Assembly (NCBI GenBank): GCA_902785485.1
Contig: CACZZA010000004.1
Location: 1 to 62,322 of the forward strand
Direction of reading: 5' to 3'
DNA: 62,322 nucleotides
From: an uncultured Ruminococcus sp.
GTDB lineage: Bacteria > Bacillota > Clostridia > Oscillospirales > CAG-272
This document shows, piece after piece, positions 1 through 62,322 of this stretch. The stretch's first letter is position 1. The number at the start of each line of letters is the position of its first letter. The position numbers were made by a program, and so were the translations under genes. The notes under the pieces were generated by a model that did no database searches, was not told the origin of the DNA, and saw only the letters and a list, made by a program, of their open reading frames with translations.

Positions 1-885
1 TTTGAGCTTTTCGTAAGCGGTGACGGTCTTGTCCTTGTCCGCCATCAGGGTAACTTCGGGATAGCCTTCCGCGTTGTTCGTCGTCGCGCGGATGCCGAAG
101 CCGTAGAGGAACATTCTCGGGTTGTGGTTTTCGGAGAGGGTGCCGTACTGGTCGAACTCGGTCATGCGTCCGTCGCCGTCCATATCCTTCGATACGCTCT
201 TGACCATCTTCGCCCAGTTGTCGACCGTCCATTCGTTGTTTTCGATCAGCTCGTAGGGAGAGGTCAGACCGTAGTCCGAGACTATCTTTTTGTTGAAGAA
301 TACGACGAACCCTATCGTGTGGATATTGAGCGCGCAGTTCGTGAAGTAGAGCTTGTCGCCGATGAGCAGTTCTTTGTTCGCGTTCTGGTCCCAGTAAGGC
401 TTCGAGAGGTCGAACTGAGGCACGCTCTTGAGGTCGTAGAGCAGGTTTTCCTGAGCCATTGTCGCGAGACGCGCGCAGGACGCCAGAATAACGTCGAAGT
501 CGGTCGAGCCGGACATTATCTGAGCGCGGGCGGAAGACAGGATATCGGAGACCTTCAACTGAGTTATAATGATGTTATACTTTTCTTCGAGGATCTGATT
601 GCGTTTGGTGACCGCGACGGGGAGAGGCTCCTCCGCCTCGTCTTCTTCCGCCACGATATAATGCGTATTGTAAGAACTTCCCTCGTTCGTGATGAACGTG
701 AACTCGTACCCACCGTAGTCGACGGCTTCGATCTTGGGATCGTCCTCGCTGTTGAGGTTTATCGTCTCGGCGTCCGGGTTCGTTTTGGGTCCTTCTTCGG
801 TATCGCCTCCGCAGGCGACGAGGACCGGCAGGATCATCAATCCCGCGAGGAGTAAGGTCAAAAGCTTTTTCACAGTGTTTTTCAT
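1..885 (-). CDS. extracellular solute-binding lipoprotein (CUT1/LplA-like), paralog 1; C-terminal part cut by the window edge
   Basis: Reverse-strand ATG at 885 gives MKNTVKKLLTLLLAGLMILPVLVAC (signal peptide plus lipobox Cys). The DNA is collinear with paralog 2 at an offset of 1489 bp; positions 1-60 versus 1490-1549 differ at 1 base. Confidence 0.8.
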   Translation of the reverse strand, partial: MKNTVKKLLTLLLAGLMILPVLVACGGDTEEGPKTNPDAETINLNSEDDPKIEAVDYGGYEFTFITNEGSSYNTHYIVAEEDEAEEPLPVAVTKRNQILEEKYNIIITQLKVSDILSSARAQIMSGSTDFDVILASCARLATMAQENLLYDLKSVPQFDLSKPYWDQNANKELLIGDKLYFTNCALNIHTIGFVVFFNKKIVSDYGLTSPYELIENNEWTVDNWAKMVKSVSKDMDGDGRMTEFDQYGTLSENHNPRMFLYGFGIRATTNNAEGYPEVTLMADKDKTVTAYEKLK

Positions 886-907
886 TGATTGTACCCCATA
901 GACAGAA

Positions 908-2374
908 TCAGTTGTTTTTAAAGTTTGAATACGTTTTTTCTATGCTTGCTTTGATGGCTTTTTCGTGTCTCGCGAAGTTTCTCGAGATCTCGTTCGTCGC
1001 GATGTCCACATCAAGCACTTCGGAGCGGATGTTGCCGAAGTTATAATACATTCCGACGTCGTAAACGCAGTTGTCGCGCAGGATGTAGAGGTATTTCCTC
1101 GACTCCTCGTCGCGGGTGTAGCGGCGCGCGAGCAGGGTGTCGAACCAGGTCGGGACGGTGATGAGAGACGAATAGTAGTTCATATCCTCGATGATGCGTC
1201 CGGTACGGTCGAGGTCTTCGACGACTGACGGCAGAGCAAACAGATTGCATTGGAACTGATACATCGTCTTGAACTCTTTTTGGTTAGAGTCGTACTTCGG
1301 GAACGGGACGATACCGAATTCGCTCTCCATATCGGCGAATTGCTGGACGCTTCCCTCGCCGGTGTAGTGGAACATATAGAGATCCTGCATGAAGAGGGAG
1401 CGCAGATAATTCCATTTGTGGGTGAATCCGTGCGGATCGACCGTGCTGTTCGTCATATCGTAGCAGACCGTGTTGTCGGAGAAGACGGCTTTGAGCTTTT
1501 CGTAAGCGGTGACGGTCTTGTCCTTGTCCGCCATCAGGGTGACTTCGGGATATCCGTCTTCGTTGTTCGTCGTCGCGCGGATCCCGAACGCGTAGAGGAA
1601 CATCCTCGGGTTGTGCCGTTCGGAGAGGGTGCCGTACTGATCCCATTCGGTCATACGTCCGTCTCCGTCCATATCCTTCGATACGCTCTTGACCATCTTC
1701 GCCCAGTTGTCGACCGTCCATTCATTGTTTTCGATCAGCTCGTAGGGAGAGGTCAGTCCGTAGTCGGAGACTATCTTTTTGTTGAAGAATACGACGAACC
1801 CTATCGTGTGGATATTGAGCGCGCAGTTCGTGAAGTAGAGCTTGTCGCCGATAAGCAGTTCTTTGTTCGCGTTCTGGTCCCAGTAGGATTTCGACAGATC
1901 GAACTGAGGCACGCTCTTGAGGTCGTAGAGCAGGTTTTCCTGCGCCATCGTCGCAAGACGGTTGCAGGATGCCAGGATCACGTCGAAGTCTGTCGATCCG
2001 GACATGATCTGCGCGCGGGCGGTGGAAAGTATATCAGAGGTGTTGAGTTGCGTTATCACCACGTTGTATTTCTCTTCGATTATCTGATTGCGTTTCGTTA
2101 TCGCGACGGGGAGCGGATCGGATTCTTCTTCCTCTTCCGCCACGATATAGCCTGTGTTGTACGCGGTGCCTTCGTTCGTAAGAAATGTAAACTCGTACCC
2201 ATCGTAGTCGACAGCTTCGATCTTGGGATCTTCTTCGCTCTGTATCGCGACGGTTTCCGCGTCGGGATTGACGGACGGACCTTCGGCAGCGCCGTTCCCG
2301 CAGGCGACGAAAACGGGCAAGACGGTCAACCCCGCGAGGATAAAGGCGAAGAATTTTTTCGTACAGGTTTTCAT
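908..2374 (-). CDS. extracellular solute-binding lipoprotein (CUT1/LplA-like), paralog 2
   Basis: ORF 908..2416, trimmed to the ATG at 2374, which is preceded by GGAGGTG. N-terminus MKTCTKKFFAFILAGLTVLPVFVAC is a lipoprotein signal. About 490 aa, with the general look of sugar-ABC binding proteins. Confidence 0.8.
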   Translation of the reverse strand: MKTCTKKFFAFILAGLTVLPVFVACGNGAAEGPSVNPDAETVAIQSEEDPKIEAVDYDGYEFTFLTNEGTAYNTGYIVAEEEEESDPLPVAITKRNQIIEEKYNVVITQLNTSDILSTARAQIMSGSTDFDVILASCNRLATMAQENLLYDLKSVPQFDLSKSYWDQNANKELLIGDKLYFTNCALNIHTIGFVVFFNKKIVSDYGLTSPYELIENNEWTVDNWAKMVKSVSKDMDGDGRMTEWDQYGTLSERHNPRMFLYAFGIRATTNNEDGYPEVTLMADKDKTVTAYEKLKAVFSDNTVCYDMTNSTVDPHGFTHKWNYLRSLFMQDLYMFHYTGEGSVQQFADMESEFGIVPFPKYDSNQKEFKTMYQFQCNLFALPSVVEDLDRTGRIIEDMNYYSSLITVPTWFDTLLARRYTRDEESRKYLYILRDNCVYDVGMYYNFGNIRSEVLDVDIATNEISRNFARHEKAIKASIEKTYSNFKNN

Positions 2375-2530
2375 ATCGCACCTCCGAATCTTGATTATGT
2401 GTAAACATTTTATCATAAATGTGTTAACATTTCAAGTCTTTTTATATAAAATACACAAATATTTCCGGAAAGAAACCGGCGCCGGACCGCAAAATGCACC
2501 GAGCCGGTCTCTTTGCGTGCGGGACGGACC

Positions 2531-2566
2531 GAAAAAAGGGGTCTTCGGCGCGGAAGATCCCTTTTT
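2531..2566 (-). terminator. intrinsic terminator downstream of paralog 3
   Basis: GC hairpin GGGGTCTTC/GAAGATCCCC flanked by an A-run and a T-run, so it has a U-tract on the minus strand. Confidence 0.6.
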
Positions 2567-2584
2567 GTCACTGTTATGCGTCCG

Positions 2585-4075
2585 TCAGTTGAGTTCGAAC
2601 GATTTGTAGGTCTTGTCTATATCGGCTTTTGTGGCTTTCTCCACTCTTGCGTAACTGCGCGAAATATTCGCTGTCGTGATGTCGACGTCAAGCACGCTCG
2701 TGCGGATGCTGCCGAAGTCGTAGTAGAGACCTATGTCGTACACGCAGTTGTCGCGCAGCAGGCGCAGATACCTTTCGGATTCCTCGTCGCGGGTGTAGCG
2801 GCGGGTCAGCAGAGTCTCGAACCACGTGGGAAGCGTGATCGTCGAGGAGTAGAAGTTCATATCCTCGATGATGCGTCCGGTGCGGTCGACGTCCTCGATG
2901 ACGGACGGAAGGGCGAACAGGTTGGTGTTGACCTGGTACATCGTAAGATAGTCTTTCTGGTTGGAATCGTATTTCGGGAACGGGATGACTCCGAATTCGC
3001 TCTCCATATCGGCGAACTGCGTGATGCAGTCGTCGCTCGTGTAGTGGAACATATACAGATCCTGCGTGAACAGCGAACGCAGATAGTCCCACTTGTGGGG
3101 GAAGCCGTGCGGGTCGACTGAGCTTGAAGTCATATTGTAGCAGACGTTGGCGTCGGAGAACACCGCTTTGAGTTTTTCGTAGGCGGTGACGGTCTTGTCC
3201 TTGTCCGCCATCAGAGTAGGCTCGGGATAGCCGTTTTCGTTGTTGGTCGTCGCGCGGATGCCGAACGCGTAGAGGAACATCCTCGGGTTATGATTTTCGG
3301 TCAGCGTGCCGTACTGGTCGATCTCGGTCATACGTCCGTCGCCGTTCATATCTTTGGAAACGCTCTTTACCATTTCCGCCCATTTGTCGACGGTCCACTC
3401 GTTGTTCTCGATGAGGTCGTACGGGGATTCAAGTCCGTAATCGGAGACGATCTTTTTGTTGAAGAATACGACGAATCCGAGCGCGTGGATGTTGAGCGCG
3501 TTGTTGGTGAAATAAAGCTTGTCGCCGATCAGCAGTTCGGAATTCGCGTTCTGGTCCCAGTAGGGCTTCGAGAGGTCGAACCTCGGTACGTCGCGCAGAT
3601 TGTACAGCAGGTTTTCTTTCGCCATCGTCGCGAGAGTCGAGCACGACGCCAGTATGACGTCGAAGTCGGTCGAGCCGGACATTATCTGGGCGCGCGCGGT
3701 CGAAAGCAGGTCTGACGTGCGGAACTGCGTTATGGTTATGTTGTATTTTTCTTCGAGTATGTTGTTTCGTCTGATCAACGCCGACGGAAGAGGAGCTTCT
3801 TCCTGCCCTTCCTCCGCTACGATATAACGGGTGTTGTAGTCGTTGCCCTCTCTCGTGAGGAAGGTGAATTCGTATCCGCCGTAATCGACAGCTTCGATAT
3901 GCGGATCGTCGTCGAGCAGCGCCGGGTCGAACGCCGTTTCTCCGTCTTCGAGAGTTTCGATCCCGGTAACGCCCTTCGTCTCTTCCGCGTCCGATCCTCC
4001 GCACGAAGCGAGAGTGAACGCGAACGCTGTCAGAACGAAACAGAACGCCAGGATAAGTGACAGGGTCTTTCTCAT
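2585..4075 (-). CDS. extracellular solute-binding lipoprotein (CUT1/LplA-like), paralog 3 (more divergent)
   Basis: ORF 2585..4201, trimmed to the ATG at 4075 (RBS AAAGGAG). MRKTLSLILAFCFVLTAFAFTLASC is a lipoprotein signal. Collinear at the protein level with paralogs 1 and 2. Confidence 0.8.
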   Translation of the reverse strand: MRKTLSLILAFCFVLTAFAFTLASCGGSDAEETKGVTGIETLEDGETAFDPALLDDDPHIEAVDYGGYEFTFLTREGNDYNTRYIVAEEGQEEAPLPSALIRRNNILEEKYNITITQFRTSDLLSTARAQIMSGSTDFDVILASCSTLATMAKENLLYNLRDVPRFDLSKPYWDQNANSELLIGDKLYFTNNALNIHALGFVVFFNKKIVSDYGLESPYDLIENNEWTVDKWAEMVKSVSKDMNGDGRMTEIDQYGTLTENHNPRMFLYAFGIRATTNNENGYPEPTLMADKDKTVTAYEKLKAVFSDANVCYNMTSSSVDPHGFPHKWDYLRSLFTQDLYMFHYTSDDCITQFADMESEFGVIPFPKYDSNQKDYLTMYQVNTNLFALPSVIEDVDRTGRIIEDMNFYSSTITLPTWFETLLTRRYTRDEESERYLRLLRDNCVYDIGLYYDFGSIRTSVLDVDITTANISRSYARVEKATKADIDKTYKSFELN

Positions 4076-16818: not shown

Positions 16819-17715
16819 ATGGCAAATCCCGCTCAGGCTCTGCTTGATATGAAAAAAGAAAAGGATTTCCTCATCTGCATCGACTCGGACGGATGCGCGT
16901 TCGACACGATGGAGATCAAGCACAAGGAGTGCTTCATACCCAACATCATCCGCTGGTGGGACCTTCAGGCGGTCTCGAAATACGCCCGCGAGGCGGCGGA
17001 GTACGTCAATCTGTATTCCAAGCACCGCGGAATCAACCGTTTTCCCGCGCTGCTCGAGGTCTTCGACCTGCTCGCCGACAGACCGGAAGCCGTACGCCGC
17101 GGCTACAAGGCTCCCGAAGTCCCGACCTTACGCAAATGGGTGGAGACCGAGACCAAGCTCTCGAACAACACTCTCAAACAGTACGTCAAGGATCATCCCG
17201 AGGATGAGGTGATGGCTCACACGCTCGTCTGGTCGGAGGCGGTCAACAACACTGTTACCGACATAGTCAAGCACGTCCCGCCGTTCCCGTTCACCGTGGA
17301 TTCTCTCAAAGCGATGCAGGACAAAGCGGACGTCATCGTCGTTTCGGCGACTCCCTGCGAAGCGCTCGAGCGCGAATGGGCGGAGCATGACATCGCGAAA
17401 TACGTCAAGGTCATCGCCGGACAGGAGATGGGATCGAAAAAAGAAGTCATCGCCCAGGCTAAGACGAAGGGCTACGACGACGACAGGATCCTGATGATCG
17501 GCGACGCCCCCGGCGACCACAAGGCGGCGAAAGCCAACGGCGCTCTGTTCTACCCGATCAACCCGGGCAAGGAAGAGGACAGCTGGGAAGCGCTCTCAAA
17601 AACTTATCTCGAGGTCTTCTTCGGCGGACGCTACAAGGGCGAATGCGAAGAAAAGCTCCTCAAAGAATTCGACACCTACCTCCCCTCCACCCCCTGGTGG
17701 AAAAACGCAAAATAA
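16819..17715 (+). CDS. HAD-superfamily hydrolase
   Basis: ICIDSDGCAFDT (DxD motif I) and MIGDAPGDHKAA (motif IV). Confidence 0.75.
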   Translation: MANPAQALLDMKKEKDFLICIDSDGCAFDTMEIKHKECFIPNIIRWWDLQAVSKYAREAAEYVNLYSKHRGINRFPALLEVFDLLADRPEAVRRGYKAPEVPTLRKWVETETKLSNNTLKQYVKDHPEDEVMAHTLVWSEAVNNTVTDIVKHVPPFPFTVDSLKAMQDKADVIVVSATPCEALEREWAEHDIAKYVKVIAGQEMGSKKEVIAQAKTKGYDDDRILMIGDAPGDHKAAKANGALFYPINPGKEEDSWEALSKTYLEVFFGGRYKGECEEKLLKEFDTYLPSTPWWKNAK

Positions 17716-17741
17716 TCAGCAGTGAAAGGATGCGCAACGAT

Positions 17742-19193
17742 ATGAAAAAAGCTGACATAGGTCTTATCGGACTCGCCGTTATGGGCGAAAACTTAGTAAT
17801 GAATATGGTCAACCACGGCTTCACCGTCGCGGTGTTCAACCGCACCTCGGAGAAGGTCACCCGTTTCGTCGAGGGACGCGCCAAGGACAAAGCGGTCATC
17901 GGCACGTACTCGCTCGAAGAGCTTGTGGCGAACCTCGAAAGACCCCGCAAGGTGATGCTGATGGTCAAAGCCGGACAGCCGGTCGACGACTACATCGAAA
18001 AGATCATCCCCCTGCTTGAAGAGGGCGACATCATCATCGACGGCGGCAACTCGCACTTCGGCGACACCGCCCGCAGATGCGCGAACGTCGAGAGCCACGG
18101 ACTGCTCTACGTCGGCACCGGAGTTTCCGGCGGCGAAGAGGGCGCTCTCAACGGTCCGAGCATGATGCCCGGCGGCTCGCCCGCCGCGTGGCAGTACGTC
18201 AAGCCTATCTTCCAGGCGATCTGCGCCAAGGTGGAGAACGGAGCCGCCTGCTGTGAATGGATCGGCGAAGGCGGAGCCGGACATTTTGTCAAGATGGTAC
18301 ACAACGGCATCGAATACGGCGATATGCAGCTCATCTGCGAAGCCTACCAGATAATGCGCGACGTCCTCGGTATGAGCGACGACGAGATGCACGAGGTCTT
18401 CACCGAGTGGAACAAGGGCGAGCTTGACAGCTATCTTATCGAGATCACCCGCGACATACTCGGATACAAAGACACGGACGGTTCTCCGATAGTCGAAAAA
18501 ATACTCGACACCGCGGGACAGAAGGGCACCGGCAAATGGACCGGCATCGCCGCGCTCGACGAGGGCATCCCGCTCACTCTTATCGGCGAAGCGGTGTTCG
18601 CGCGCTGCCTGTCCGCGATGAAAGAGGAAAGAGTCAAGGCGTCGAAGCTCCTCACCGGACCGAAGGCGCAGTTCACCGGCGACAAAAAGGCGTTCGTCGA
18701 CGACCTCGGCAAGGCGCTCCTCTGCGCTAAGATCGTTTCCTACGCGCAGGGTTATACCCTTATGCGCGCGGCTTCCGAAAAATACGGCTGGAACCTCCAC
18801 TTCGGCAACATCGCCCTTACGTGGAGAGGCGGATGCATCATCAGAAGCGTATTTCTCGGCAAGATCAAAGAGGCGTTCGACGCGGAGCCCGGACTCGTCA
18901 ACCTCATGCTCGCTCCTTACTTCAAGGAGAGGATCGAAAACAACCAGGCGGCGTGGAGACGCGTCTGCGCCGCGGCGCTCGCTAACGGCATCCCCGCTCC
19001 TTCGATGACCTCGGCTCTGTCGTACTACGACGGATACAGATGCGAAAGACTCCCCGCAAACCTGCTCCAGGCTCAGCGCGACTACTTCGGCGCTCACACC
19101 TACGAGAGGATCGACCGTCCGCGCGGCGAGTTCTTCCACACCAACTGGACCGGACACGGCGGAGACACCGCGGCGTCTGTTTATAAAGCGTAA
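17742..19193 (+). CDS. gnd: 6-phosphogluconate dehydrogenase, decarboxylating
   Basis: MKKADIGLIGLAVMGENLVMNM..., GGNSHF, GTGVSGGEEGA, HFVKMVHNGIEYGDMQLI and a conserved C-terminus. The start was chosen at the ATG 11 nt after GAAAGGA. Confidence 0.95.
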   Translation: MKKADIGLIGLAVMGENLVMNMVNHGFTVAVFNRTSEKVTRFVEGRAKDKAVIGTYSLEELVANLERPRKVMLMVKAGQPVDDYIEKIIPLLEEGDIIIDGGNSHFGDTARRCANVESHGLLYVGTGVSGGEEGALNGPSMMPGGSPAAWQYVKPIFQAICAKVENGAACCEWIGEGGAGHFVKMVHNGIEYGDMQLICEAYQIMRDVLGMSDDEMHEVFTEWNKGELDSYLIEITRDILGYKDTDGSPIVEKILDTAGQKGTGKWTGIAALDEGIPLTLIGEAVFARCLSAMKEERVKASKLLTGPKAQFTGDKKAFVDDLGKALLCAKIVSYAQGYTLMRAASEKYGWNLHFGNIALTWRGGCIIRSVFLGKIKEAFDAEPGLVNLMLAPYFKERIENNQAAWRRVCAAALANGIPAPSMTSALSYYDGYRCERLPANLLQAQRDYFGAHTYERIDRPRGEFFHTNWTGHGGDTAASVYKA

Positions 19194-19213
19194 TTTCCAA
19201 GTAGGGTTATAAT

Positions 19214-19258
19214 AACACCGGGGAGAGACCGCGTACGGCTTCTCCCCGGTGTTGTTTG
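19214..19258 (+). terminator. intrinsic terminator after gnd
   Basis: AACACCGGGGAGA...TCTCCCCGGTGTT stem followed by GTTTG. Confidence 0.7.
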
Positions 19259-19318
19259 CCGAAAAAACGGGAAGGGCTTTTCGGTCCTTCCCGTATAGTT
19301 TTGTGTTTAGTTTTGCGC

Positions 19319-19626
19319 TTAGGCAGGCGGCGCGAATTTGAACACGGTTTTGGCGGGCATAGACCCGCCCATCCGTCAGAAAACATCTCGGAAATACACA
19401 AAGTATTCCCTTCACTGTTTTCTTCGGCTGAACAGCTCTCTGCTCCGTCAAAACTCTTCGACCCGAAAGCGATGGATTCAAAACTCTTCGACCCGAAAGC
19501 GATGGATTCTCGAGTCGTTTTTGGTGCGGAGGACGCCGCCTTACAAGCGTTTGGCAAGGACGACAAGCCGAAAACAGCCGAAAAGACGCGCTTTCAGGCG
19601 TGTTCAAATTCGCGCCGCCTGCCTAA
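19319..19626. repeat. R1-family structured repeat, divergent copy C, bounded by a perfect 28-bp inverted repeat
   Basis: TTAGGCAGGCGGCGCGAATTTGAACACG (19319-19346) is the exact reverse complement of 19599-19626. The interior carries the R1 hairpin AATAC-ACAAA-GTATT (19393-19407) inside helix AGAAAACA/TGTTTTCT. It also has a perfect 30-bp tandem duplication (19449-19478 and 19479-19508). Confidence 0.8.
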
Positions 19627-19643
19627 AAGGTCCCTCTTGCGTT

Positions 19644-19724
19644 CTCCGCGTCAAATTCTTATTTGCCTTCCTTTGTAAGTTTTTGAAAGAGCGCGAGAGG
19701 ACTTTTCTCAAAAAGTCCTCTCGC
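19644..19724 (+). repeat. R2-family repeat (AAATTCTTRTTT...TTTGTAAG...GCGAG-hairpin)
   Basis: Aligns with 47106-47189 (same orientation) and 46751-46837 (reverse complement). Hairpin GCGAGAGGAC/GTCCTCTCGC at 19693-19724. Confidence 0.7.
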
Positions 19725-19790
19725 ATTATTACTCGCATTATTACATTTTACGCCGCGCCGAAATACAGCCCCTTGCGTTTTTATATCGGA

Positions 19791-20861
19791 TCATCTCTTT
19801 TCCTTCATAACTTCCCGCGTAGAGGCGAGGAGTTTTTTTACGCTTGCGGTGAGGGTCTTGCGGGTCTGGGGAGGGAGCTTTGCCGCGGCTTTGAGAATGG
19901 CGGAATAGGACTCGCGTTTACGGGAATTCAGTTCGCGGATGGTGGAGGCTCCGGAGGCTTCGATGGAGTCGAAAACGGCGCTGCACAAAACCCGAAGTTC
20001 ATCGTCCGACATTTCGGAGAGCCACTTTTCGAGCGTCTCGTCGAGAAAAACGCTCCCTTCGGCGCGATCCGCCTCGACGAAAGAATTACCGATCACTTCC
20101 CAGGTCAGCGGAAAGTGCTGATGAAATCCGGTCGCTGACGAGCGGACTATCTTCTTTTCTTTTTTGGACGACATTATGATCCCGACGACCGAGCTTTCGG
20201 GAATGATGAGCCTGACGCGGTCGATCACGGAGAGATATTCTTGCGTTTCGGTGACTCCTTTTCTGAATCCCGGCCCGTCGTTTGAATAGATCTCGCGTAT
20301 TCGCGTTTTCGTATCTTCAGAGCAGAACGCCGCGCCGTAGACTGCGAGGTTGCCGCCTTTTGAATGACCGCCGACGATGAGCTTTGCTTTCGTTTTTCCG
20401 GCGACGTCGTCAAGATATTCCGCCGCTTCTTTTTGTCCCTCGGTCGAGTCGGGGAGCGCAAGCTCAAAGTCTTCTTTCCAGCCGACTATCGTGTTGTCCG
20501 TTCCCCGGAACGCGGCGTACGCGAGGTCTTTTTTTATGTTGAACAGGGTCGCGCTGAACTGCACGCCGCGTTTCCCGTCGGTGTCGCTGACGTGGTCGGA
20601 TACGCGGACGTTGCCGAAACGGTTCGACGCCGCGCATTTTTCAAGCAGAGGGTATGGGTCGTTGTTGCGCGAGACGCTTTTGAGTCCCTTTTCGGAGTAG
20701 ACGCGGCAGACGTCGCGCATGGCGAGGGAGCTTCCTTCCGGGATGACCCGGCTAAGGTCGAGATATGCGAGGGTCGAAAAGATGAGGTTGTCGACCTCGT
20801 TGAAGGGCGAGGCGGAAAACGAAAGATCGCCGCGCCAGTCGACGTAATCAAGTATGTTCAT
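19791..20861 (-). CDS. DUF2974 (Mbeg1-like) alpha/beta-hydrolase family protein
   Basis: MNILDYVDWRGDLSF...FNEVDNLIFSTLAYLD N-terminus and a GGHSKGGNLA nucleophile elbow, both typical of DUF2974. Confidence 0.7.
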   Translation of the reverse strand: MNILDYVDWRGDLSFSASPFNEVDNLIFSTLAYLDLSRVIPEGSSLAMRDVCRVYSEKGLKSVSRNNDPYPLLEKCAASNRFGNVRVSDHVSDTDGKRGVQFSATLFNIKKDLAYAAFRGTDNTIVGWKEDFELALPDSTEGQKEAAEYLDDVAGKTKAKLIVGGHSKGGNLAVYGAAFCSEDTKTRIREIYSNDGPGFRKGVTETQEYLSVIDRVRLIIPESSVVGIIMSSKKEKKIVRSSATGFHQHFPLTWEVIGNSFVEADRAEGSVFLDETLEKWLSEMSDDELRVLCSAVFDSIEASGASTIRELNSRKRESYSAILKAAAKLPPQTRKTLTASVKKLLASTREVMKEKR

Positions 20862-36012: not shown

Positions 36013-36200
36013 GGTCTCGCGGCGATGACCACTGGAGAGAGGAAGAACAAAGTTCAGTTGCAATTTGCGCTTCGTCCGACTGCAAACGCTCGACGTACAC
36101 AAAGTACGCCTTCGGTTTGCACTCGAACGATCCTCATCCACGATACCGAAGCGCGTGGCGATCCTTCGCGGGTCGGGTTACCCGCCGTTGGTGAACGAAA
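36013..36200. repeat. R1-family structured intergenic repeat, copy A (candidate ncRNA or structured DNA element)
   Basis: Shares conserved blocks with 62036-62230: GGTCTCGCGGCGATGACC; GTTCAGTNGCAATTTGCGCTTCGTCCG; CTCGACGTACA-AAAGTACGCCTTCGG; CGAACGATCCTCATCCACGATACC; GGCGATCC. Two helices differ in sequence between the copies but stay complementary. Confidence 0.8.
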
Positions 36201-62035: not shown

Positions 62036-62260
62036 GGTCTCGCGGCGATGACCGCTGACTAACTATAAAGCCTTGTTCAGTGGCAATTTGCGCTTCGTCC
62101 GTTCTCTCCCACTCGACGTACAGAAAGTACGCCTTCGGGGAGAGAACGAACGATCCTCATCCACGATACCTTCGCGCAGGGCGATCCATCGAAGGAAAAG
62201 TAACTTTCCGAAGGAAAGGAAACGCACAAACCCCACCTACGAAGCCGAGCCATTTGGCAG
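62036..62260. repeat. R1-family structured intergenic repeat, copy B
   Basis: Contains the same conserved blocks as copy A. Helix GTTCTCTCCC (62101-10) pairs with GGGAGAGAAC (62138-47). Inner hairpin CGTAC-AGAAA-GTACG (62117-31). Helix CCTTCG (62169-74) pairs with CGAAGG (62190-95). Confidence 0.8.
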
Positions 62261-62322
62261 TTATGTAAACGATTATTGCTGAATGGGCGATAGTGTTCCA
62301 AATGGCGATGCGAACGATAATT

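Follow-up and report, generated by a model that had tools for sequence, protein, structure and literature searches.

The Correia elements of Neisseria (CREE/NEMIS) are intergenic units that duplicate TA upon insertion, carry terminal inverted repeats of about 26 bp and give rise to a folded transcript; to our knowledge, no resident transposase is known for them. REPINs are inverted REP doublets moved by RAYT tyrosine transposases and combine two strand-specific palindromic modules within a larger hairpin. The RUP element has been linked to IS630-Spn1 through similarity of the ends, and RNase III cleavage of Correia elements is mentioned in the same source (PMC3049150). Transposition of IS630 family members is directed to TA and duplicates it, with about 24–30 bp of each end being sufficient in the case of ISY100; TA-only insertion with TA duplication is considered the signature of IS630/Tc1-mariner transposases (PMC2170065).

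The unit described here lies in the window, by which we mean the whole stretch of 62,322 nt that was analyzed, corresponding to contig C4 of a 2.34-Mb MAG in 210 contigs. A first-pass annotation had reported a perfect 28-bp inverted repeat enclosing 252 bp of non-coding sequence, and both statements proved accurate: the arms at 19319–19346 and 19599–19626 are 100% complementary over 28 nt with 252 nt in between, and, with up to three mismatches allowed, the 28-mer occurs at two places in the window, namely the two arms (0 expected from shuffles). The inner part of the 28-mer is a 25-nt terminal inverted repeat, the outer part consists of T plus TA. The left repeat (GGCAGGCGGCGCGAATTTGAACACG; 19322–19346, plus strand) also bounds the copies on contigs C18, C44 and C162 of the same genome, and the right one (19599–19623, minus strand) is its complement; the flanking TA copies at 19320–19321 and 19624–19625 were recognized as target sequence by comparison with the empty allele described below. 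Between the arms follow rod A, an imperfect hairpin of ~108 nt (19347–19454, minus strand) defined by a covariance model, covariation and strand folding, and rod B, an imperfect hairpin of ~107 nt (19492–19598, plus strand) defined by covariation and strand folding, with a perfect 2 × 30-bp tandem duplication (19448–19507) at the three-way junction. The element thus delimited is 302 bp long in the window, compared with a normal length of 272 bp. It sits between the converging 3’ ends of gnd (17643–19193, plus strand) and an Mbeg1-like/DUF2974 gene (19791–20861, minus strand). Two hairpins (19211–19293, plus strand) located downstream of gnd and upstream of the insertion are, judged from their sequence, likely terminators. 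ORFs that overlap the unit were rejected as genes, because the indels that distinguish copies and relatives have lengths not divisible by three and break the frame, leaving no credible ORF between the arms, and no ORF in the unit bears a Pfam domain. Likewise, Rfam 15 gave no match at gathering score in the window or in eight related loci, and a permissive search (E up to 10) over 19200–19800 returned nothing relevant.

The genome contains three full copies of the element and one 73-bp end fragment. Besides the window copy (C4, 19319–19626), the only one with the 30-bp duplication, these are a full copy on the opposite strand of C18 (9372–9649), a copy on C44 (1–217) that is cut by the contig end and complete in another assembly (L052), and the end fragment on C162 (1344–1417). 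The copies are 96–99% identical, the 30-bp indel left out, and their 25-nt arms match perfectly in the window and at the C44 locus, the C18 copy having a single arm mismatch. All six ends visible in the genome are flanked by TA, in the form TA-GGCAGG... or ...CCTGCC-TA. At the C44 locus (L052, 3085–3110), the TAG stop codon of a gene for a 200-aa membrane protein is made up of the duplicated TA and the first G of the element; thus, the insertion abuts the coding sequence and leaves the protein unchanged.

The first-pass annotation had offered a MITE-like insertion as one explanation and proposed to look for an empty site in related strains. This search was rewarding, as contig L046, from another assembly of the species, carries a clean single TA at the C18 locus (between rplS and a GH10 gene), reading ...GCGCCTCTTTTCT-TA-AAAAGGGCGCG..., around TCT-TA-AAAAGG, or, in another extract, ...CTCTTTTCT-TA-AAAAGGGCG.... 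The occupied C18 allele reads ...CTCTTTCCT-TA-[GGCAGG...CTGCC]-TA-AAAAGGGCG..., so that the two alleles differ by exactly the element plus one TA, which identifies the TA as a target-site duplication. A third allele (L043, L044) lacks the element together with 37 bp of flank; in it, an 11-nt stretch of the flank, GCCGACTGCCT, is fused to its identical counterpart at the right end of the element, an arrangement that looks like the outcome of a deletion between direct repeats. The flanking sequence 40 nt from the C18 insertion site (C18:9650–9700) carries an 11-nt copy of the element’s right end, GCCGCCTGCCT; this copy is present even in the empty allele, and in the window genome it shares a C-to-A change with the right arm. 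Taken together, the unit is small and non-coding, has terminal inverted repeats, shows a target-site duplication relative to an empty site and occurs in copies at unrelated sites. With high confidence, we therefore view it as a non-autonomous, TA-duplicating MITE with 25-nt ends and a conserved three-way core, which would, somewhat more likely than not, be moved in trans by a transposase of the IS630/Tc1-mariner type. The family is apparently uncatalogued, having neither an Rfam match nor a counterpart in the literature searched.

Regarding the choice of target, the C18 copy uses a TA within the apical loop of the terminator of rplS, and the right flank of the window copy starts where a loop TA and the 3’ half of an R2-type hairpin would be. 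Hairpin loops as a general target were nevertheless rejected: the rebuilt empty sites of 34 related insertions folded no better than controls with mismatched flanks (mean −4.4 vs. −5.1 kcal/mol, p = 0.91).

In whole-genome searches, 26 of 401 same-order genomes proved to carry related units of ~270–295 bp, which are scattered in a patchy manner over about 12 families; within the window’s own family, one other genome harbors a related unit. The outer arm sequences differ completely between lineages yet stay complementary, and some relatives have TG/CA or other dinucleotides instead of TA beside the arms, so that TA duplication may not extend to every lineage. Vescimonas fastidiosa MM35, a cultured gut bacterium, carries a unit of 277 bp that is flanked by TA at either end and has perfect 25-nt arms (NZ_AP023416.1:189629–189905, on an 861-kb replicon), placed after a terminator and between converging genes (an S1-domain gene and a carbonic-anhydrase gene); it is of the same type as units in several genomes of the order, which points to Oscillospirales as the order concerned. 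Scanning metagenome contigs for this arm type (CCATCGRTTGACAAGRGCA) gave more than 120 contigs, mostly from human gut, with 38 units of 260–300 bp, five of 328 bp (L070, L113, L142, L146, L174) and 28 mini forms, mostly of 46 bp. TA was found on both sides of 36 of the 43 full gut units, the flanks being unrelated, and this sister subfamily occupies 34 distinct TA-flanked sites. The minis (among gut contigs L077–L179) range from 38 to 72 bp and consist of the two arms only; those of 46 bp are found at several TA-flanked sites. At least four distinct internal deletions can be told apart by their junctions, one of which, AAACACG-CCTG-CCCTTG, recurs at three or more different loci. The latter observation suggests that the arms alone may be able to transpose, which would fit the requirement for ~24–30 bp of end sequence reported for ISY100.

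Several further forms were noted among the relatives. The longer variant L058 (MT837146.1) has an extra stretch of ~50–65 nt in the apical loop of rod B, suggestive of a nested insertion. In genome G039 (L002, L007, L011), stand-alone rod-B-like hairpins of ~100 nt occur (AAAGCG..TTTTCGG..GTCGTCC..GGACGAC..CCGAAAA..CGCTTT; about nine matches in this one genome), and rods may thus also exist as independent repeat modules. The arms of L013, L017 and L019 (genomes G321, G129 and G271) resemble the 3’ part of a tRNA, with a T-arm-like GCGGG-TTCGACT-CCCGC followed by an acceptor-like 7-mer, and several other lineages likewise have the inner arm motif GTTCRAA. Phages were rejected as vehicles, with 0 matches in IMG/VR and a single match in a phage collection, an ‘UNVERIFIED’ gut contig labeled as bacteriophage.

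As to the enzyme that mobilizes the unit, insertion into TA with TA duplication, as seen for the window family, is the behavior expected of an IS630/Tc1-mariner transposase. A DDE_3 transposase was detected in one of 27 carrier genomes, G049. The IS630-family element of this genome (L056, G049:C15) is 1161 bp long, flanked by TA and encodes a product matching Pfam DDE_3 with an E-value of 1.6e-26; its terminal 16 nt agree at 12–13 of 16 positions with the arm of G049’s own unit, at the same distance from the TA. Ends resembling those of a resident IS630 element were thus found in G049, and neither in the window genome nor in the 25 other carriers. The L056 transposase is encoded in two overlapping frames around an A-run, TTCAAAAAAAACG, an arrangement that, from the reading frames, suggests programmed frameshifting. 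In the window genome, an IS630-type transposase was found neither by the DDE_3 search nor by tblastn with the G049 transposase. A search for mariner-type Transposase_1 was without matches in the carriers, with control genomes being equally silent. An autonomous partner with the same ends was sought in arm censuses, metagenome contigs and species genomes, and this candidate had to be dropped: the arm 21-mer of the window copy had 0 matches in the metagenome contigs and one chance-level match among 185,579 species genomes, in a Pirellulales MAG, without a longer element; arm pairs more than 400 bp apart were absent from G055, from the finished Vescimonas replicon and from more than 120 gut contigs; and unpaired arms in the censuses adjoin host genes (e.g., a DegV gene) and no transposases.

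These findings invite the main alternative, namely that the element is mobile by means of another enzyme, either of the IS5 group, which generates short TA-containing duplications, or an unrecognized host- or structure-specific enzyme acting on the fold. It draws on the lack of DDE_3 in 26 of 27 carrier genomes, on the missing autonomous partner with matching ends in G055, the Vescimonas replicon and the more than 120 metagenome contigs, and on outer arms that are entirely different from lineage to lineage, the fold being retained. Yet MAGs often lose IS copies, which makes the absence of a transposase weak evidence; moreover, the TA-only duplication is the textbook signature mentioned above, the sole resident IS630 element found has ends resembling the arms of the local unit, and the arms-only minis look transposition-competent, pointing to the ends, and not the fold, as what is recognized. 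On balance, another enzyme appears unlikely to us, though it is the alternative we take most seriously, and we lean, with no great margin of certainty, towards assigning the mobilizing activity to IS630. Under the preferred reading, the unit would be moved in trans by a DDE transposase of the IS630/Tc1-mariner type, whose source would either have escaped the MAG or have been lost since, and the parent would be an element of ~1–1.5 kb ending in GGCAGGCGGCGCG.

The 30-bp duplication, which the first-pass annotation had placed at 19449–19508 and interpreted as either recent or actively maintained, is exact. Since the repeated tract comprises 2 × 30 + 2 nt, this register is as valid as ours (19448–19477 and 19478–19507). 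The duplication extends from the 3’ base of rod A across the linker to the 5’ base of rod B, and a 2-nt TC microhomology is found at its borders, the repeated unit and the sequence following it both starting with TC. Other assemblies of the same species (from cattle rumen and other samples) were retrieved by exact-protein look-ups of the flanking genes; two of these, L039 and L040, cover the locus with a single copy of the 30-mer. The duplication is also absent from the C18 and C44 copies and from all relatives. In the predicted folds with and without the duplication, all three helices are kept, so that it would lengthen the junction linker and leave the helices intact. An assembly artefact without a corresponding allele would account for its occurrence in this MAG alone, when two independent assemblies of the locus have one copy; however, an exact tandem of 60 bp fits within a single read and is not the kind of error that de Bruijn graphs typically produce, and apart from the duplication the window allele agrees with L040 at every base, down to the TC after the unit. 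We hence judge an artefact improbable and read the duplication, from the compared alleles, as what appears to be a private, strain-level event of the slippage type. Of the two earlier interpretations, recency is retained; maintenance is not, given the single copy in other assemblies of the locus.

Folded as a single strand, the whole unit reaches a z of about −8 relative to shuffles on both strands. An alignment of 17 full units of different lineages yielded a three-way junction in which the arms form the closing helix and rods A and B the two others, with tips GAAATAC-ACAAAG-GTATTCC (rod A) and GC-UGAC-GC (rod B). Paired cells amount to 90.8% in this fold vs. 70.4% in shuffles, changes on both sides were found in 60 of 82 pairs vs. 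40.6 expected, and the covariation score of 0.549 was reached by none of 500 shuffles (0.187), with slid controls at 0.09–0.14. The covariance model derived for rod A scores rod A of the window at 99.5 bits. Among the four copies in genome G055, divergence is 6.5% in the core, 13% in the outer arms and 29% in the inner arms, and the arm changes are one-sided and uncompensated. In ordinary MITEs, the pattern is the reverse of a core more conserved than the arms, and the lower divergence of the G055 core hence implies constraint on the core. We conclude that the 220-nt interior of the element is a conserved three-way fold rather than filler, kept by compensatory changes across the order.

The two rods behave oppositely with respect to strand. 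We compared the minimum free energy of each rod on both strands, a test that is free of pair-selection bias. Under RNA parameters, the reverse strand was favored for rod A, by ~10 kcal/mol, in every unit of the order-level set (17 of 17) and of the gut set (29 of 29), and the forward strand for rod B, by ~10–11 kcal/mol, in 16 of 17 and 29 of 29 units, respectively; as the sequences are related, p-values would overstate their independence, although the preference held across lineages of about 70% identity. DNA parameters gave the same strand preferences with few exceptions. As a consequence, the element has a two-fold pseudo-symmetry: read 5’ to 3’, either strand presents arm, weak rod, strong rod and arm. 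Based on these computed stabilities, the symmetry would fit a module working single-stranded in either orientation.

Could the unit primarily be a structured non-coding RNA gene, with the 28-bp repeat as closing helix and the copies as paralogues? The very strong covariation in all helices, the conservation of the core across about 12 families and the one-strand preference of ~10 kcal/mol (46 of 46 units for rod A, 45 of 46 for rod B) speak for this possibility. Nonetheless, an empty site with TA duplication exists, dozens of unrelated TA-flanked insertion sites are occupied, the distribution is patchy, Rfam gave no match, and no conserved promoter was identified. The opposite strand preferences of the rods argue against a single conventional RNA gene, as no single transcript would contain both in their best form. 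A G–U excess as indication of a one-strand RNA gene was looked for and rejected: in pairs predicted on both strands, Watson–Crick pairs dominate and G–U (38) is no commoner than A–C (36). We thus consider an RNA gene very unlikely. The first-pass idea of a very long closing helix of a structured RNA was right insofar as the repeat closes a strongly covarying three-way fold, and missed that the arms behave as transposon ends.

The preferred reading of a TA-duplicating MITE leaves room for the question of what its core might do. Our best guess is that the core might allow the element to be tolerated, or might make it useful, whichever way it lies between converging genes, acting, for instance, as a folded 3’-end structure. 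A bolder version, which is possible and which we put forward tentatively, holds that the conserved core is the real payload, a two-sided structured module with each rod selected on a different strand, and that the terminal repeats are interchangeable handles. If so, the module would act single-stranded, as RNA from either of the converging genes or as ssDNA, whichever way it is inserted; conceivable roles would be those of a bidirectional 3’-end, of an insulator, of a stability element or of a host-factor site, and the terminal repeats would be mobilization handles that were swapped or drifted between lineages.

The weakest proposal, an inverton whose arms would be recombination sites allowing the 252-bp segment to flip, can cite the perfect 28-bp inverted repeat and a contig (L050) with the unit in the other orientation beside rplS, but has next to no probability, considering that no recombinase gene lies within about 5 kb, that three assemblies of the locus show one and the same orientation, that a multi-copy, TA-flanked unit fully explains the repeat, and that L050 differs in both flanks, the far one belonging to the C44 locus, and is thus a different insertion or a chimeric contig.

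The first-pass annotation also related the unit to two repeat families of the genome, termed R1 and R2. An R1-type hairpin is indeed present inside rod A at 19390–19409 (GGAAATAC-ACAAAG-GTATTCC), this tip being a motif common to the R1 repeats. The genome contains its 11-nt core, TACACAAAGTA, 27 times where ~1.1 occurrences would be expected. R1 copies account for 24 of these and copies of the element for three, the frame always being TCCG..CTCG-stem-tip-stem-CCTTC..GAAC; rod A itself folds best on the strand opposite to that reading TACACAAAGTA. The term ‘divergent R1 core’ is therefore adequate for the tip hairpin only: genome-wide, the matches of the rod A covariance model are the element’s own copies, the R1 loci of the window score 10.7 and 14.2 bits (E 0.3–3), and homology of the whole rod to R1 was rejected on these grounds and in view of differing unit ends. 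In the window, R1 is found at 36013–36200 and 62075–62322, two of 24 copies genome-wide. Many R1 copies are located at contig ends, the window itself ending inside one, and a longer collapsed repeat may lie behind them.

The repeat said to adjoin the unit is real as well. At 19626–19731, outside the element, the sequence comprises the 3’ half of a terminator-like hairpin, the conserved motif TTCTCC..AAATTCTT and a complete hairpin at 19693–19724. Such R2-type repeats, terminator-like hairpins combined with the motif AAATTCTTGTTTA, are present at no fewer than 28 loci in the genome. The R2 motif is the reverse complement of the R1 start, TAAACAAGAATTT, implying that R1 and R2 share a boundary module. 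Elsewhere in the window, positions 1–3466 contain stretches of ~300 nt at 1, 1490 and 3167 that share 85–93% identity, as well as another set at 908 and 2585 with 72%; by their sequence, these look like tandem paralogous genes.

A striking sequence feature is thus accounted for as a member of an ordinary class, the TA-duplicating MITEs, and the seemingly fresh duplication within it as strain-level noise. The family is spread through Oscillospirales-type Clostridia of the rumen and the human gut, where such repeats break assemblies and confuse annotation. A core more conserved than the ends, together with rods preferring opposite strands, suggests a function beyond mobility. With Vescimonas fastidiosa MM35, a cultured and fully sequenced carrier, the function of the core is directly testable.

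How does the unit compare with the known systems? Within the same genome, the R1 repeats share with it the tip hairpin TACACAAAGTA and the frame of motifs around it, but are at least 320 nt long, start differently and lack both 25-nt terminal inverted repeats and TA flanks. REPINs resemble it in architecture only, as two strand-specific modules are inverted within one hairpin-forming mobile unit; they leave the target unduplicated and are linked to a RAYT gene present in single copy, whereas here TA is duplicated and the arms appear sufficient. The Correia elements come closer, sharing the TA duplication, terminal repeats of ~26 bp, the intergenic position and the want of a known resident transposase. 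They belong to a different phylum, however, with no sequence similarity seen, and are single hairpins of 100–155 bp without a two-rod junction and without rods of opposite strand asymmetry. RUP, the IS630-Spn1-associated MITE of Streptococcus pneumoniae, is likewise a small non-coding unit whose terminal repeats pair in a tight fold; it was assigned to an IS630-family parent by end similarity and is enriched downstream of genes (PMC3049150). In contrast to RUP, a simple hairpin of 107 bp, the present unit comprises ~272 bp with a three-way fold, and its family spans a whole order, with arms that vary by lineage and most carriers being without a resident parent IS. The unit is distinguished from known MITEs by its core, which combines conservation and covariation with a division between the two strands.
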